This document shows, one piece after another, positions 2,938 to 9,528 of a stretch of DNA of 15,609 bases (positions are counted from its first letter, which is position 1; every line of letters begins with the position of its first letter). The notes beneath the pieces were generated by a model. That model saw only the letters and a program-made list of their open reading frames with translations. It was not told the origin of the DNA and searched no databases. Made by a program: the position numbers and the translations under genes. Where the stretch lies: positions 89,711 through 105,319 of IMG/VR virus record IMGVR_UViG_3300043410_000715; one strand, given 5' to 3'. The DNA comes from a virus. Its lineage: Duplodnaviria; Heunggongvirae; Uroviricota; Caudoviricetes.

Positions 2938-5900
2938 TTATTTTTTAGCCTGTTTTTTTGCAATAGCAATAGCAGCCTGTTGTTTAGCATTCTTTGCTTC
3001 TGCTACTTTCTGTTCAGCAATCATCATTAATTCGTGTAATTGCTCAACACTTTCGCAATTCCAACGGCGTAATGCCTTATTGATTGGGCTATTAGGATCA
3101 CGTTTTGTTTTAGCACTTGCACGTGACTTCTTCATCCCACTCATTCTAGCGCAGAAAGATTTACGGCGTTTTGCGTCCTTAGAACCTTTCTTTAGTTTTG
3201 AAGGCTTCTTTGTAACAGCAGTTTTTAATTTAGAACCTGGATTCTCTCTGCGATATGCCTTGACGGCTTTACGGCTCATGCCATCAGTTTTGTCAGATTT
3301 ATTGACTTTTTGCCAATCTTCGTTAATTGCTAGTTCATCTATTTTCATATCAAATGATTCCTCTAAACTTTGTTCTTCCGCCACACCTTGCTCTTTGATC
3401 TTGTCTTGGATCTTTTTATAGCGTTGGAAGTTAGCATCTTTATCCGCATCAGTTTTACCAAACTTTCCAGCGTCCATCTTTTTATCTATTTCACGCTTGG
3501 CATATCCAGGAACAACCTTGCGTAGCGTCTGTGGCAAGCCTTCCGCCACACCTTGCTTCAATCCTTTGATGGCACGGTTAATCATACTGCGTTCCTCGTC
3601 AGGACCAATGCCCTCATATCCATAGTGCATTAGATAATCTTCATACGCATTGTTCAACGCGGTAATTACAGTTGCTCTATCAAATTGCTTTAACTGTGGG
3701 TACATCTGTAGTGCTATTGAATAGTAATTGCCACCTTCGCCTTCCGCCACGCCTTCTTTAGCAAGTTTACCTAACTCTTGTTTATATTTTTGTACAACTT
3801 GTTGGTATTGTTTAGTTTTAGCATCATCTCCTGCACGATTTGCGGCAATAGCCTTTTCTTCATACTTAGGAATAAGATTCTTTAGACTACGGATACGGTC
3901 TGCTCGTTGAGCATCTTTAAACATTGGGCTTGGTTCGCCTTCCGCCACACCTTTTTCTTTAGGTGGATTAACTGGAACAGTCTTATACACACGCTTGACA
4001 GGATCCCAAACAGTTTTGCGTGGGCCCTCTTTTGCTAATTTACCTACACGTTCAACCTTCTCATCCCATTCAGGGCCATACTCAGCTTCGCCTTCAGCAA
4101 GTTGCAAATCTTTCTTCAATGCGGCAACAACACGTTGTTTACTGCGACTGTCTAACTGGTCAATCAATTTTCTAGTTTGTGCATAAACTGTATTTAAATT
4201 TTTAGTCGCCGCTGGTGCCACTTGAGAACTAGGTGGTGTTGTCGGTGTACTTGTTGGTGTTGTATTTGCTGGTTCTTGTGCTGTAGGAGTTGCATTTGGT
4301 GGTGCAACTGAAGATGGATCAACGTCAATTTTTCTTTCTATTGATGAACCGCCACCTGGTTGACCGGGAGCAGGAATCTTCATATTATTAAACACTTGTG
4401 TGATAGTACTAGTTGGTACTCCTGCTTTTTGAATTAAACTAGCAACATCTAAACTATCTGTTGGGCTACCTGCTTTTTTCCATGCTTGCAATAACTTATC
4501 CGCAGTAATCTTTGTTGTTAGATTTTGTCCTTTAGTTGCTACATAGTTACCAACTTTACCTGCGGCACCCTTGACAGTATCCATTATACCTTCTTGTAGT
4601 CTTTGTCTCTCAACAATTTTACCAATCACTAGATATATTTGTGATTCAGAAAGTTTCTTAGACTCACTAAGTTTTGGTGAATTTGATGCAGCCGCCGCAT
4701 CATATTTTAAGAAGCCTGGATTATCGGGGTCTTTAATCCAACCTGGTAATAGTTTTCCATTATCATCATATGCAATACCTGCTTGGTTAGCTGGAATACT
4801 ATTCATTCTTTGTTGATAGTCAGCCATATTCTTAGCGTTAGTTGCATCGACCTGTGCGTTGTATGCATCAACATCTTTTACTTCAGCATCATACTTTGCT
4901 TGTTGCGCCGCATTGATTTTATCAACGTCAGCATCTACTTTAGCATTAGCACGGGCTAGTGGGTTAGTTTTACTATCAGCATAGTTAGTTTCGTCACCGG
5001 TTGGTGCAACCACAGTATCATTCGCCATCTTAGCAAACTGATCTGGATCAATCTTTGGTGGTACTCGTTGAGTATAATCAGGAGAAAGGTTACCTGATGG
5101 AACATCAACTGCTCCTTTTGGCACAAATTCCCCGCCCCAATCTACTGTATTACCAGCCCCTTGACCTGCTTGAATTGTTCCTCTTCTTGGAACATATTCC
5201 ATTTCACCTGAACCTTGTACAGGTAAAACTTTCTCACCGGAAACAGCGGCATGTTGTTGGGCACCTCTAATAGCATCACCGATCTTACTTGCACCGTAAG
5301 CCATTGCGCCTGTCTTAGTACCTTGATATGCCGCACTAGAAAACTTTTCACCTTGCAATAGTTTGTCTACCATTTTAAATAGACCCAATGCCGCGGCACC
5401 ACCAACGCCAGCACCACTAATACCGGCTGCGGCGATCAATGCTGAGTAAATCAAACTTTGTGCTACTGGATGTTTCTTAGCAAAGTCACGATACTTCTGC
5501 ACATACTGCATCACACCCTGATCGCCACCAGTTGCTTGTTTTAATTGTTCAGCAGCCTTATCATACATTGCATCAACGTTTTGAATAGGACCTGAATTCT
5601 GTACTTTAGTTTTTAAATCTTCCCATGCTTTGCTAACTGCACCTGCGGCATCTTTGCCCTTACCTAGCATAGTGCGATTGTCACCGCCTGCTGTTTGAAC
5701 ATTTTGAACGTATTGAAAAATTTGATTAATTTGGTCTGCTGTTAATTGTGCTTCTACTAATTTGTAGCCTGCACTCTCCCACAATCTAAAAGTTTTCGCT
5801 TCTGTCAACATATTTACGGGACGAGCAATAGATTCAGTAAATGAAATTGGTTCTGCAATTGGTGGCTCATCTTTCCATGGCTTCCACATTCCATACTTGT

Positions 5901-6279
5901 GATTATCAATCATGTGAACTTGCACCACGCCATCTTTGATGGGAGTAATTTTACCTACTTGTTTTTTTGCGCCCCAATTATGGTCGATATAACTTTTAAG
6001 TTCCCACTCAGCTTGTTGTGTAGTGGGCGCCTTAACTGTTACTGTCATATTATAACCAGCATCTCTATCTTCATCTTTGCTGATGTTATATTCAGGGCGT
6101 GAACCTTGTGCTGGTTGACGTTGAATAGGCTCATCATCATATTTTTCTAAATCACTATCATCATAGTCATCAACGCTAGGTTTACGAGGTTTATGTTTTA
6201 GTGCATTGTAATAATCAATATCGCTATCAAAATTGCGAGGATCAACCTCATTCACGATGCCTTTTAAAATATTACTCAT
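2938..6279 (-). CDS. 1113-aa modular protein, putative internal head/ejection polyprotein with a Gly/Ala-rich hydrophobic segment, a Pro/Thr linker, GVAE-delimited modules and a very basic C-terminal module
   Basis: Long ORF with many [VIL]-x-E boundaries (VNE, LTE, LVE, LSE twice, LQE, LAE, VAE four times, LEE, INE) and a C-terminal RRKSFCARM...ALRRWNC module. No catalytic motif was recognised. Confidence 0.8.
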   Translation of the reverse strand: MSNILKGIVNEVDPRNFDSDIDYYNALKHKPRKPSVDDYDDSDLEKYDDEPIQRQPAQGSRPEYNISKDEDRDAGYNMTVTVKAPTTQQAEWELKSYIDHNWGAKKQVGKITPIKDGVVQVHMIDNHKYGMWKPWKDEPPIAEPISFTESIARPVNMLTEAKTFRLWESAGYKLVEAQLTADQINQIFQYVQNVQTAGGDNRTMLGKGKDAAGAVSKAWEDLKTKVQNSGPIQNVDAMYDKAAEQLKQATGGDQGVMQYVQKYRDFAKKHPVAQSLIYSALIAAAGISGAGVGGAAALGLFKMVDKLLQGEKFSSAAYQGTKTGAMAYGASKIGDAIRGAQQHAAVSGEKVLPVQGSGEMEYVPRRGTIQAGQGAGNTVDWGGEFVPKGAVDVPSGNLSPDYTQRVPPKIDPDQFAKMANDTVVAPTGDETNYADSKTNPLARANAKVDADVDKINAAQQAKYDAEVKDVDAYNAQVDATNAKNMADYQQRMNSIPANQAGIAYDDNGKLLPGWIKDPDNPGFLKYDAAAASNSPKLSESKKLSESQIYLVIGKIVERQRLQEGIMDTVKGAAGKVGNYVATKGQNLTTKITADKLLQAWKKAGSPTDSLDVASLIQKAGVPTSTITQVFNNMKIPAPGQPGGGSSIERKIDVDPSSVAPPNATPTAQEPANTTPTSTPTTPPSSQVAPAATKNLNTVYAQTRKLIDQLDSRSKQRVVAALKKDLQLAEGEAEYGPEWDEKVERVGKLAKEGPRKTVWDPVKRVYKTVPVNPPKEKGVAEGEPSPMFKDAQRADRIRSLKNLIPKYEEKAIAANRAGDDAKTKQYQQVVQKYKQELGKLAKEGVAEGEGGNYYSIALQMYPQLKQFDRATVITALNNAYEDYLMHYGYEGIGPDEERSMINRAIKGLKQGVAEGLPQTLRKVVPGYAKREIDKKMDAGKFGKTDADKDANFQRYKKIQDKIKEQGVAEEQSLEESFDMKIDELAINEDWQKVNKSDKTDGMSRKAVKAYRRENPGSKLKTAVTKKPSKLKKGSKDAKRRKSFCARMSGMKKSRASAKTKRDPNSPINKALRRWNCESVEQLHELMMIAEQKVAEAKNAKQQAAIAIAKKQAKK
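3375..3953 (-). repeat. Four dispersed direct repeats encoding the (K/E/Q)GVAE linker
   Basis: AGCAAGGTGTGGCGGAAG is exact at 3375-3392 and 3540-3557. AAGG(T/C)GTGGCGGAAGGCGAA occurs at 3736-3755 and 3934-3953 (19/20 identical). All four share AAGGYGTGGCGGAAG. Confidence 0.95.
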
Positions 6280-6960: not shown

Positions 6961-9528
6961 TTAGTATTTTCCGTTGGGATTTGCGTTTGGTGGTATGCCC
7001 GCTCTACTTGTTTTCCAGTAGAAGGCTTTTGCGTTCTTTTTGATACTGTCAGGGTGAACGTCTACTGTTAGTGCAGTCTTAAAGCGAGGATCGTTACGTT
7101 CTGCATAGCTAGGAATGTAGCCGCTTGCTTCTTCTAATTGAATGTTGACTTTTTTGATTCTACTAGGATCAATTATAGTGTCAACTATCAATTCATAGTC
7201 AGCACCTTTACTGATGTTCTTTTCTAAACCAGAAACGTCAATCTTTAGCATAGTCAACGGTTCATCGTCAAACTCGTCACCTAGCCAATTCATAACTGCA
7301 TCTTCTGCGCTTGTCCTGTCTGGAAATACATAGATTCCAGACTTCTCACCTGCTATCTGACTTGTTCTATCACCTACAGTAGGTTTAAGACCTTGCTTTG
7401 CTATTGACTTTAAATTTCTTGTAGGAGTTACATGATAGACAAACTGAGGTGTGGATTCTGCTTCTGCTACGCCCTGTTTCAACCTAGTCAATTCGTATAC
7501 TACTTGGTCGCCGTGATCCTCACTATATTCATCATATCCCCATGCTCTAGCGTATCGTCTAATTAAACTGTTGTATAGTTTTGCTCTGCTCTCACTATTT
7601 TTTGCATCGTTGGGATCCTTAGAGGCAGAAAATATTAGACGCCAAGGATGTTCTTTTTGAATGAATTGATGGATCGCACTGATTACGGTAGCAAATACTC
7701 TTTGTGCATCACCTTCGCCGGTGACCCCCATGCTGAAGTTCCTATCAAATCTCACATGCCATTCATCATCGCCTTCAGGTTCAATCATAATGCTTAACAG
7801 TGTACCATCGTCTAATGTAGCTAGTGCATCGTAATCGCCGAAATCACTTTTTTCCCAAGTAAAGGGATAGGGTTTATCAAATGCTTCAGACAATGTTTCT
7901 TTTGAGAGTTTTTCTACTTTATCTACAGCTTTTTTCAATGCGTCATCATAACCATTCTGTTTAGCTTCTTGTCTGGTCATTCCCAAGAACTGACTTAGCA
8001 TTTCTTTAGCAACTTGATTTGATAATTTTTGTCTAGTATCGCTATTAACCCTTAAATGACTTATGCTCCAATATAGAGCATCAGATAATCGTTTCATACT
8101 TAACTTGTCACCTTGTACATAGTTGTTGAATGTCTTATGTTGCTTGATAGCTCTTGGGTCTAAGATACATCCCTGATATGGTTCGCCAAACGCAATCCAA
8201 CTTTTACCTTCATCAAGCAATACAGTAAATCCCAAATTTCGTAGTATCTTATTCCATACAATGATTTTACGTTCGTCATTCTTGAATCGTCTACTTAATG
8301 CGTCATATGTAAACCATAATGCATCATTGATACCTTTCCTAGCACTCATGCTAGGCTCATCAATAGCATATTGTATATCACTATCTGTTATACCATACTC
8401 AGCTAATACTCTTTTCATGTCCTCGAAAGGGACTTTAGTATTAGGAGTCATCATGTGGCTAGTATCAAATTGTAACAACTGCATGTATGGTAAGTGGTCA
8501 CCCCAAGGCAAACGCTTTTTGTTGTCCAACATGCGTAAGAAATAATCTAATGGATAGAAATAAATGCCTTTAGGTGTGTCTTCGCTGACACTCGGTTGAG
8601 GATTGATACCTAACTTAGGAAGTAATGTCATGCTTACTCCCCAGTTACTTTTATCTCTGATACCTTCTGCGTAAGAAGCCAGTTCATATTTACCTGAACC
8701 ATACCTGTAATTCTGTTCAGGATTCGCTCTTGCTTCGTCTACTTCTTGTTGATTAAATTCTCTAGCAAACTTTTCTGCCAAGTTATCTTCTTGAACCTTA
8801 ATAGGGTCTTGGTACATTGTTTCAATAGTCAAATGTTCACTATGCAACTTGTCTCTCAGTGCATATAGTTTATCTATGTATCCTTGACTACGTAATGCTT
8901 TATATGCTAAGTTTTCAGGACCAAACTCCCCACCTTTGTCTAGTCCTGCTTTTCTATATTGTTTTATCTTTTTGATTATGTTTTCTATCTTCTTCAATTT
9001 ACTTGAGGTGAGCGCAAATTGAACTAATTCTAATAATTTATCGTATTTTGCTCTGGTAGCAGTTTGGTCAAAATTTGCTCTGCGCTTAGTTGGGATTCTA
9101 AGCCATTTGTTATCCTTGATACTGTACTCACCTAGACTTACGACTGGTTCTCTGGCGTCTTGTACGTATATTTCTACTGGTACCCCGTGTATTAAAATGT
9201 TATGTGTGTCGTTATAGATAATCTTTTTTGCATGGAATAATTCTCTATAGATATCATCATTTTCTAATCTGCTCATATCTATTAGAATGTGTAAATCTAA
9301 ATCTGAATGTGGTGTATAACTATATGCGGCGTTTGAACCCGAGACTGTTAAATCTTGTACTTCCAAATCGTGAACGCCTAATTCTGATAGAAAATCTTGT
9401 GCAACAAGTTCTAATTGTTTTTTTACTTCCGGACGCAAATGATTATTTCTCCATAACTTTGGATTCAATTCGTTATGGAAAGTGATTGCGTCAGATATCT
9501 TAAAACTGTCTAATTCTCGTAAATTCAT
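6961..9528 (-). CDS. ~855-aa multi-enzyme protein: Pol-beta-superfamily nucleotidyltransferase, ART-like module, GNAT-like repeat module, H-x-T ADP-ribosyltransferase/KptA-like module and a short terminal module (start revised from TTG 9543 to ATG 9528)
   Basis: SGSNAAYSYTPHSDLDLHILID (9295-9339) plus VEIYVQD; TPKGIYFYP...EPYQGCILDPRAIK; TGEGDAQRVFATV...RAKLY; YHVTPTRNLKSIAKQGLKP...GIYVF...YE..V..IIDP..I. Modules are bounded by VDE|A, LSE|A, VAE|A and LEE|A. Confidence 0.8.
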   Translation of the reverse strand: MNLRELDSFKISDAITFHNELNPKLWRNNHLRPEVKKQLELVAQDFLSELGVHDLEVQDLTVSGSNAAYSYTPHSDLDLHILIDMSRLENDDIYRELFHAKKIIYNDTHNILIHGVPVEIYVQDAREPVVSLGEYSIKDNKWLRIPTKRRANFDQTATRAKYDKLLELVQFALTSSKLKKIENIIKKIKQYRKAGLDKGGEFGPENLAYKALRSQGYIDKLYALRDKLHSEHLTIETMYQDPIKVQEDNLAEKFAREFNQQEVDEARANPEQNYRYGSGKYELASYAEGIRDKSNWGVSMTLLPKLGINPQPSVSEDTPKGIYFYPLDYFLRMLDNKKRLPWGDHLPYMQLLQFDTSHMMTPNTKVPFEDMKRVLAEYGITDSDIQYAIDEPSMSARKGINDALWFTYDALSRRFKNDERKIIVWNKILRNLGFTVLLDEGKSWIAFGEPYQGCILDPRAIKQHKTFNNYVQGDKLSMKRLSDALYWSISHLRVNSDTRQKLSNQVAKEMLSQFLGMTRQEAKQNGYDDALKKAVDKVEKLSKETLSEAFDKPYPFTWEKSDFGDYDALATLDDGTLLSIMIEPEGDDEWHVRFDRNFSMGVTGEGDAQRVFATVISAIHQFIQKEHPWRLIFSASKDPNDAKNSESRAKLYNSLIRRYARAWGYDEYSEDHGDQVVYELTRLKQGVAEAESTPQFVYHVTPTRNLKSIAKQGLKPTVGDRTSQIAGEKSGIYVFPDRTSAEDAVMNWLGDEFDDEPLTMLKIDVSGLEKNISKGADYELIVDTIIDPSRIKKVNIQLEEASGYIPSYAERNDPRFKTALTVDVHPDSIKKNAKAFYWKTSRAGIPPNANPNGKY

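Follow-up and report, generated by a model that had tools for sequence, protein, structure and literature searches.

The DNA analyzed here is a stretch of 15,609 nucleotides (nt), called the window below, which forms the final 15.6 kb of a 105,319-nt virus record in IMG/VR (IMGVR_UViG_3300043410_000715, 38% GC). The source is a giant T4-like freshwater phage, and the CheckV completeness of the 105-kb record, about 30%, indicates a giant phage. Every long open reading frame (ORF) in the window lies on the minus strand. One of these, P0001 (2938..6279, minus strand), encodes a modular polyprotein of 1113 amino acids (aa), defined by its ORF and translation and by the collinear orthologs P0009, P0124, and P0125. 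The N-terminal two thirds of P0001 are conserved, and the C-terminal part is an array of cassettes. A short linker peptide, Gly-Val-Ala-Glu (GVAE), recurs between the cassettes. This linker, its DNA spelling, and the gain and loss of the modules that it bounds are the subject of this analysis.

GVAE occurs in P0001 at aa 777, 843, 910, and 965, each time in frame on the minus strand. Linker 1 (K-E-K-GVAE-G) lies at 3937..3957, with its GVAE codons at 3940-3951, and is the left breakpoint of a three-module indel relative to P0009. Linker 2 (K-E-GVAE-G, spelled GGC GTG GCG GAA) lies at 3739..3759, with GVAE codons at 3742-3753. Linker 3 (K-Q-GVAE-G; 3538..3558, GVAE codons 3541-3552) is a perfect copy of the 21-nt master form described below. 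Linker 4 (E-Q-GVAE-E; 3373..3393, GVAE codons 3376-3387) is the right breakpoint of the indel relative to P0009.

A sequence-only reading of this DNA had noted that the four linkers share their DNA down to synonymous positions. This is borne out: GTG GCG GAA is used in 4 of 4 linkers, Gly is GGT three times and GGC once, and all four linkers with their flanks match the 15-mer AAGGYGTGGCGGAAG. The proposed count against shuffled sequence gave a clear excess. The 15-mer was observed four times, against 0.03 expected from dinucleotide shuffles and 0.02 from a synonymous-codon shuffle of the whole 105-kb record. The 10-mer GTGGCGGAAG is confined to these four sites within the 105,319-nt record, against 0.13 expected and a maximum of 2 in 300 genome-wide synonymous-codon shuffles. 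Direct repeats of at least 11 nt within 3300-4000 are the linkers only. Both codons are minor ones in this record: GTG encodes 13.5% of Val residues and GCG 9.6% of Ala residues. Within P0001, Ala is mostly GCA (56) or GCT (40), as had been stated, against 19 GCG and 13 GCC. A further GVAE provides an internal control. It lies in an 860-aa ORF (GVAE codons 7462-7473, minus strand) and is spelled GGC GTA GCA GAA, just as the earlier reading reported, with AAA CAG before it. The peptide therefore does not force the DNA spelling.

The module that ends in linker 1, here called the anchor (aa 731-780, EYGPEWDEK...PVNPPKEKGVAE; 3940..4089, minus strand), is itself a cassette. Copies 69-85% identical to it stand at other positions in P0005, P0006, P0007, P0008, P0011, P0047, and others. 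Just before the anchor, the border at 4075-4095 (aa 726-732, DLQ-LAE followed by GEAEY) has the sequence CTT GCT GAA GGC GAA. This is similar to GCG GAA GGC GAA, the right half of the linker, and the border may be a junction that has decayed.

Three modules follow on the minus strand. Module 1 (aa 781-846, 66 aa; 3742..3939) is a predicted helical hairpin with a predicted local distance difference test (pLDDT) score of 93-96 in a single-sequence model. Module 2 (aa 847-913, 67 aa) occupies 3541..3741, and module 3 (aa 914-968, 55 aa; 3376..3540) is basic and a widespread cassette. The terminal module (aa 969-1113 plus stop; 2938..3375, minus strand) carries DUF6321 (PF19846), the single Pfam match of P0001 (aa 996-1073, E 6.6e-11, 43.1 bits against a gathering cut-off of 28.5). 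The lengths of modules 1-3 agree with the 55-67 aa given by the sequence-only reading, and the modules are not detectably similar to each other, as it had also held. This rules out tandem duplication of one module. A single-sequence AlphaFold model of aa 727-1113 is weak (mean pLDDT 62.6, predicted template modeling score 0.27); in it, three of the four linkers lie where predicted helical units are separated by coil or by residues of low confidence.

Module content and breakpoints

The modules of P0001 recur in other proteins. A homolog of module 1 in P0093 is bounded by GVAE on one side and GVTE on the other, and module 1 is absent from P0009. Module 2 is found at 94% identity in P0003 and at 75% in P0004 and P0047, bounded by linkers (GVAE, once DVAE) and beside other neighbors. 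At least 12 other proteins carry module 3, with 91-100% amino-acid identity and different neighbors each time, and P0033 and P0015 hold two copies each. All but one of its complete copies are bounded on both sides by G[V/M]AE, with the boundary after Glu. Module 3 has no match among 50,697 cultured phage records. Clustering of the 260 modules that have GVAE at both ends gave 187 clusters with varying neighbors; the median module length is 88 aa.

The DUF6321 module likewise varies in position. In homologs it stands in the middle, at the N-terminus, or in a separate gene, often right after QGVAE or other [VIL]-x-E sites. On the P0124 contig (L307:3070-3507) and the P0125 contig it is a separate 145-aa gene whose start lies 4 nt past the polyprotein stop. 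Since DUF6321 is fused through GVAE in the window and in P0009 and split in the P0124 and P0125 loci, fused and split forms interconvert. Other small cassettes occur beside DUF6321 in many orders (P0036, P0039, P0056, P0058, P0062, and others), with the patterns CW.GYKK.GTK.K.G..V.NCVP and GLWANIHAKRERIK.GSGERMRKPG. Further recurrent cassettes beside it have the patterns ENLHKWFKEKWVRFGPDGKIRG.C and NLPEW.QEKIA.AK...V.VWDYM.

Whether orthologs break in the repeat had been named beforehand as a test of the shuffling idea. Three pairs, P0001/P0009, P0124/P0125, and P0055/P0059, differ by whole modules at the linker. Module content varies rather than being fixed, and the differences end at the linker rather than elsewhere. 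P0009 (983 aa) is collinear with P0001 and present in two sequencing runs. BLASTP blocks between the two proteins (query residues 538-780 and 962-1113) overlap on the sole KEKGVAE of P0009. The DNA of this junction has the left flank of window linker 1, with one difference in the 14 codons before GVAE, and the right flank of window linker 4; its GVAE codons are identical. Because its single linker joins these two flanks, P0009 is without modules 1-3 exactly, a 564-nt indel bounded by the repeat. After the anchor end PVNPPKEKGVAE, P0009 continues directly with DUF6321, and P0001 has three modules and then DUF6321. At the same point P0124 has one module, and P0125 has that module with two others before it. 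On either side of this two-module difference, which lies at a common linker, the P0124 and P0125 proteins are 96.5% and 100% identical. At 94-96% DNA identity, P0055 and P0059 differ by a block of 418 aa that has a canonical linker at one end and a GIAE linker at the other, and the P0059 junction falls within the linker.

The same behavior was seen in a wider comparison. We ran blastn on 259 linker-bearing frames and took the blocks that reach a linker. At 80-95% identity, 473 of 494 blocks end no more than 12 nt from the linker, and 2 run at least 40 nt past it. At 95% identity or more, 80 of 352 still end at the linker. These alignments indicate that where close relatives have gained, lost, or replaced sequence, the change is delimited by copies of a conserved DNA motif.

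Freshwater metagenomes, here as assembled contigs, gave a further view of the window. In run X1, a contig of depth 75 covers module 2 alone (3498-3721), against a depth of about 10 for the remaining gene. Its homology to the window stops at 3537/3539 and at 3755, which are linkers. X1 contigs of other phages match up to 3755, at linker 2, and then diverge from the window, and the loose ends of foreign contigs near linker 3 lie at 3537, 3539, and 3543. Depth and contig ends indicate that a more abundant phage in the X1 sample carries module 2 in another context. In runs X3 and X4, relatives match the window over 3964-6279 and over module 3 at about 90-95% identity, with no sequence for modules 1-2, and one of their contigs departs at 3543; in X3, X4, and X5, an uncovered part of the gene signifies absence of cover and no more. 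Logan contigs without differences span window linkers 1, 2, and 4.

Master spelling of the linker

The linker has a master form, the 21-mer AAG CAA GGT GTG GCG GAA GGC (KQGVAEG). The exact 15-mer is present in at least 120 IMG/VR stretches, and among the matches listed 121 of 128 are in frame as GVAE within an open frame of at least 100 aa. Because this first sample was selected by the DNA itself, we ran a second IMG/VR scan with the pattern AARCARGGNGTNGCNGARGG, which leaves the silent third positions of Gly, Val, and Ala unconstrained, and counted only loci not seen before. At these new loci, 73 of 104 in-frame KQGVAEG sites are spelled exactly GGT GTG GCG GAA, against about 1% expected from codon usage. 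Use of the master codon is 87% for AAG, 96% for CAA, 94% for GGT, 84% for GTG, 86% for GCG, 92% for GAA, and 76% for GGC. The canonical share is 16-19 of 26 sites in each quartile of GC content at third codon positions (GC3), over a GC3 range of 0.21-0.69, and is thus independent of GC3.

Conservation ends sharply at the linker. Among 233 sites taken with 30 nt of flank on each side there are 230 distinct 72-mers, so the flanks are unrelated. Large related records hold 3-6 canonical copies each, clustered in few genes, and a reversed control word gave 0. A sample of loci built on DUF6321 had GVAE in 6 of 80 and none in the other 74; such loci are a poor unbiased sample, and the degenerate DNA scan was therefore used instead. 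Membership in DUF6321 concerns the terminal module alone and not the linker system.

About 27% of linker sites are variants, and these form a star around one master. They lie one step away from it and include GMAE, spelled ATG GCG GAA in 11 of 11 cases, GVSE with the rare TCG, and GVEE with GTG GAG. The variants do not cluster by contig, and no lineage-specific alternative master form was found among them. Lineage-specific masters, or concerted drift within genomes, were considered and rejected, with 9 of 71 identical pairs against 5.3 of 53 in shuffles (P ~0.1).

Homologous modules were paired by protein, with loci chosen regardless of the Gly, Val, and Ala third positions. Where the identity of same-amino-acid codons in the module was 42%, 53%, 66%, 82%, and 99%, the identity of linker GVAE codons was 91%, 85%, 67%, 90%, and 98%, respectively; the 67% is a single dip in a small sample. 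In a DNA-paired version the linker stays flat at 81-89% as the flanks go from 56% to 93%. Between DNA copies of module 3, the identity of same-amino-acid codons is 80%, and in the linkers of these copies it is 90%. Linker codons that remain 85-91% identical beside near-saturated silent sites in the modules, together with one master in all lineages, argue for some restoring force.

An exact search of 185,579 bacterial and archaeal genomes found the 21-mer in two records only and thus no clear clue to the host. One is a Rhizobiales isolate contig (UEIJ01000023.1, 471 kb, GC 53%; L309:4048-4068), with one exact copy (LTKQGVAEG) in a 263-aa bacterial frame whose downstream part has a deaminase-like H.E motif region. 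With about 0.3 copies expected in the collection, it may have arisen by chance, or it may be a transferred cassette. The other is a contig of a Bacteroidetes metagenome-assembled genome (8,950 nt, GC 39%), with two canonical linkers in one 510-aa frame (L310:108-128, 465-485). It is most likely phage DNA binned with the bacterium and at best a weak hint of a host.

Proposed roles and alternatives

The linker peptide would be a V-x-E site of the type cut by the T4-type prohead protease, with the cut after Glu. The protease of T4, gp21, recognizes L/I-x-E and cleaves after the Glu; the IPIII leader, for example, ends in I-A-E. The linker reads V-A-E followed by G, A, E, or D, which fits hydrophobic-x-Glu, and module homology stops exactly after the linker Glu. 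A gp21-family protease (Peptidase_S77, PF03420) is encoded in two of five large linker-bearing records (E 1.7e-25 and 8.4e-25). The N-terminus of P0001, MSNILKGIVNE followed by V, ends in V-N-E and bears a mere resemblance to a capsid-targeting leader. The precursor would be packaged and then cut in the head into separate small proteins. From the site and the module ends, we infer that the head protease may cut at the linker, and the products of the modules may then be injected.

The closest parallel for such cargo is the set of T4 internal proteins IPI, IPII, IPIII, and Alt, which carry a capsid-targeting sequence and are processed by gp21. They are loaded into the head, cut after Glu, variable between relatives, and active after injection, and the V-A-E end of the linker resembles their I-A-E end. 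Unlike the modules studied here, they are encoded by separate genes, each with its own leader, whereas in the linker system many units share one precursor with predicted internal sites.

We favor, at a probability of roughly 60%, the interpretation that the linker is a standard connector with two roles, a cut site in the peptide and a handle for exchange in the DNA. Module breakpoints lie at the linker; that the shared 15-21 nt are a substrate of recombination rather than a scar is what we infer from them. The C-terminal third of P0001 is an in-frame array of small, unrelated, self-contained modules joined by [K/E]-Q-G-V-A-E and a following G. The linker DNA would offer short homology for general recombination or copy-choice between co-infecting or sister genomes. 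Exchange at the linker would delete, insert, or swap modules without a scar and in frame, and would regenerate the cut site. Further exchange would be limited to junctions that have kept the common form, and cassettes with matching ends would reach more genomes. Exchange would thereby favor one 'plug standard' and fix silent positions across lineages, and junctions that do not exchange would decay stepwise. A RecA/UvsX-like gene is present in three of the five large linker-bearing records. T4-type phages recombine heavily, and for T4 and T7 there is ample documentation of deletion between short direct repeats. The proposal of the sequence-only reading that the repeat is a microhomology for in-frame module swaps thus gains from the breakpoints in the repeat and from the recurrence of modules with new neighbors, and its view of the repeat as substrate rather than scar stays conditional.

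The same reading had called the system integron-like. In outcome the likeness stands: both are arrays of unrelated units, each bounded by a recombination site and gained or lost unit by unit. In mechanism it does not. No tyrosine recombinase (PF00589) was found in the linker-bearing records G000, G001 (99% complete), G002, G004, and G005, whereas the control search matched 14 of 14 genomes. These records are without an IntI-type integrase, and the 21 nt, with no dyad symmetry and unconserved flanks, form no structured attC. The linker units are also translated as one protein, and the mechanism is presumably homology-based rather than site-specific. The system is therefore integron-like in outcome only.

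Several observations weigh against the connector with two roles. The case for recombination at the linker comes from assembled contigs. Apparent joints that skip modules (3395>3937, 3557>3937, 3394>3537, and 3396>3535) match about 20 letters on their short side and are thus artifacts of the linker repeat, not deletions. A length of 15-21 nt is short for efficient homologous recombination, and there are just 3-6 canonical copies per genome. The master ranks 551 of 2048 synonymous spellings in duplex stability, which lends no support to maximal stability as the reason for the spelling; as the duplex is not especially stable, the sequence gives no pointer to annealing. Identity on both sides is not strictly required, since in some indels a canonical linker at one end faces VDE/IEE (L021/L072, L020/L297) or GIAE (P0055) at the other. 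As to the peptide role, the 105-kb fragment that holds the window (about 30% complete) gave no protease gene. In G001 (342,865 nt, 99% complete, four canonical linkers), PF03420 had no match at E<=0.001; the head protease of this phage may be divergent or of another family.

These one-sided indels fit a different account, in which the linker is a consequence of shuffling and not a cause. Modules would be shuffled by rare illegitimate or longer-homology recombination, selection would keep intact cut sites, and the linker DNA would be inherited without promoting exchange. Selection for intact modules would also yield the breakpoint statistics, and the module 3 copies are young overall, as the 80% and 90% codon identities given above suggest. 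We nevertheless think this account unlikely, though it carries some weight. Passive inheritance should allow drift and divergence, and yet one master holds in all lineages and GC3 classes and linker silent sites are 85-91% identical beside a near-saturated homologous flank. The GVAE at 7462-7473 shows that the protein tolerates drift. A single exact master in many lineages also resembles the recognition site of a protein, and a dedicated sequence-specific enzyme (a recombinase, nickase, or homing-type nuclease) that reads the 21-mer and moves cassettes would remove the difficulty that 15-21 nt are short for homology-driven exchange. The tyrosine recombinase search described above found none in five linker-bearing records, serine recombinases and nucleases lying outside that search; no conserved neighboring candidate gene was seen in the inspected loci, and the linker is without dyad symmetry. 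Such an enzyme is, in our judgment, very unlikely.

Constraint on silent sites could also reflect a function in RNA or translation, such as a ribosome pause at a domain boundary or an mRNA processing site, with shuffling incidental. The linker codons are rare in these AT-rich genomes, as expected for pause sites at domain borders. However, usage is the same at GC3 0.21-0.69, so 'rare codon' is not a constant property, about a quarter of sites (27%) are variant, and the flanks offer no conserved partner for a structure. A pause needs no single exact spelling of seven codons. Pairing of the master with the anti-Shine-Dalgarno sequence is below that of the average synonymous spelling (rank 1421 of 2048), and because of this Shine-Dalgarno-like pausing is rejected as the main cause. 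We see only a faint chance for an explanation of this kind. Fainter still, close to negligible, is the chance that the pattern comes from coincidence, codon bias, tandem duplication, or chimeric assembly at a short repeat. The one point in its favor is that all data are metagenomic assemblies. The linker of at most 21 nt is shorter than the k of Logan contigs, which is 31. The architectures also recur across samples and assemblers, with P0009 in two runs, P0124 on two contigs, and Logan contigs over linkers 1, 2, and 4. Both shuffles reject chance, usage is independent of GC3, and the modules are mutually unrelated.

A bolder version of the connector with two roles would make the 21-mer a universal connector for pan-phage exchange of cassettes, either read by a dedicated enzyme or kept by positive frequency-dependent selection on cassette mobility. 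The arrays would then be an in-frame counterpart of integrons at the protein level, or selfish in-frame mobile elements comparable to exon shuffling in prokaryotic viruses. We regard this version as quite doubtful.

The linker system acts like several known systems but belongs to none of them. Promoter-early stem-loop (PeSL) cassettes of T4-type phages (Arbiol et al. 2010, PMC2839356; Comeau et al. 2014, PMC4122927) also have a short repeated DNA motif around variable, mostly orphan modules in T4-like genomes. There too, where close relatives differ by an insertion, deletion, or replacement, the motif marks its limits, and recombination from one motif copy to another has been proposed to drive these changes. 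PeSLs are intergenic, comprise a promoter and a terminator, and flank whole genes, whereas the linker is 21 nt of coding DNA that keeps the frame and encodes a peptide site. PeSL mini-circles have been physically shown, in contrast to a linker system seen so far in assembled sequence. The linker is thus not a PeSL member but works alike. In the T-even adhesins gp37/gp38, glycine-rich motifs lie between hypervariable segments (Trojet et al. 2011, PMC3157838, citing Tetart et al. 1996, 1998), and exchange at conserved motifs yields new functional chimeras. Those motifs are the structural core and the segments are loops of one fold. In the linker system the units that are joined are entire, mutually unrelated modules drawn from more than 180 families, and the motif looks like a cleavage site.

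The VENN motif of CdiA and the core/tip junction of Rhs proteins (Poole et al. 2011, PMC3150448) mark swappable modules of polymorphic toxins by a short peptide with a 'highly conserved encoding sequence'. Homology between loci starts and stops exactly there, and a proposed way of reloading the gene is recombination from one copy of the motif to another. These systems are bacterial, with one variable C-terminal toxin, an immunity gene, and silent orphan copies downstream. Many cassettes stand in series in one phage polyprotein in the linker system, and no immunity genes were seen, so the likeness is one of analogy only. The polyvalent proteins of phages and conjugative elements, as described by Iyer et al. 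2017 (PMC5512222), are likewise long and mosaic, with many unrelated effector domains that are thought to travel with the DNA and be freed by proteolysis. They have embedded peptidase domains, and the searched passages of the article describe no standard linker conserved in DNA; the linker modules are mostly tiny (median 88 aa). We found no published description of the linker system in the searchable literature, nothing relevant on GVAE in phages, and no paper under the name DUF6321.

Shuffling mediated by motifs is known between phage genes (PeSLs), within an adhesin domain (gp37/gp38), and at toxin tips (VENN). In the linker system the principle operates inside a reading frame, with whole unrelated modules, in hundreds of uncultured giant phages, and with one 21-nt spelling that is maintained even at silent sites. 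If the connector has both roles, it would explain how T4-like giant phages vary small proteins that are carried in the head and presumably delivered, likely factors for counter-defense or take-over. It would also give a simple rule for dividing long orphan proteins into functional units, with more than 180 module families in a small sample. The spelling would be a testable natural case of silent-site selection for evolvability or cassette mobility, and engineered phages could borrow the linker as it stands for modular cargo that a protease releases.

Neighboring genes and database matches

P0001 lies in a phage late/structural region. Downstream of it on the minus strand are a ferritin-like gene (2429-2869), a GH19 muramidase polyprotein (645-2429), and an Endonuclease_NS gene (1-648), and the window holds three more long orphan ORFs. 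Neither the window nor the related loci inspected showed any partner gene of the cognate immunity type, and no RNA holder is listed for the P0001 gene.

The P0001 gene had no megablast match in cultured phages. When the whole protein was compared with cultured phages by tblastn, the DUF6321 end alone matched, in cyanophages and pelagiphages. The DUF6321 protein of cyanophage MA01 holds no canonical linker.

The ferritin/Dps-like gene (146 aa) lies directly downstream of the polyprotein gene in the window and on the contigs of P0055 and P0059, and one gene further away on the P0010 contig. Copies are located at 2429-2869 of the window, L305:4839-5279, L308:2585-3025, and L304:5179-5409. This synteny is kept although the module content of the polyproteins differs strongly.

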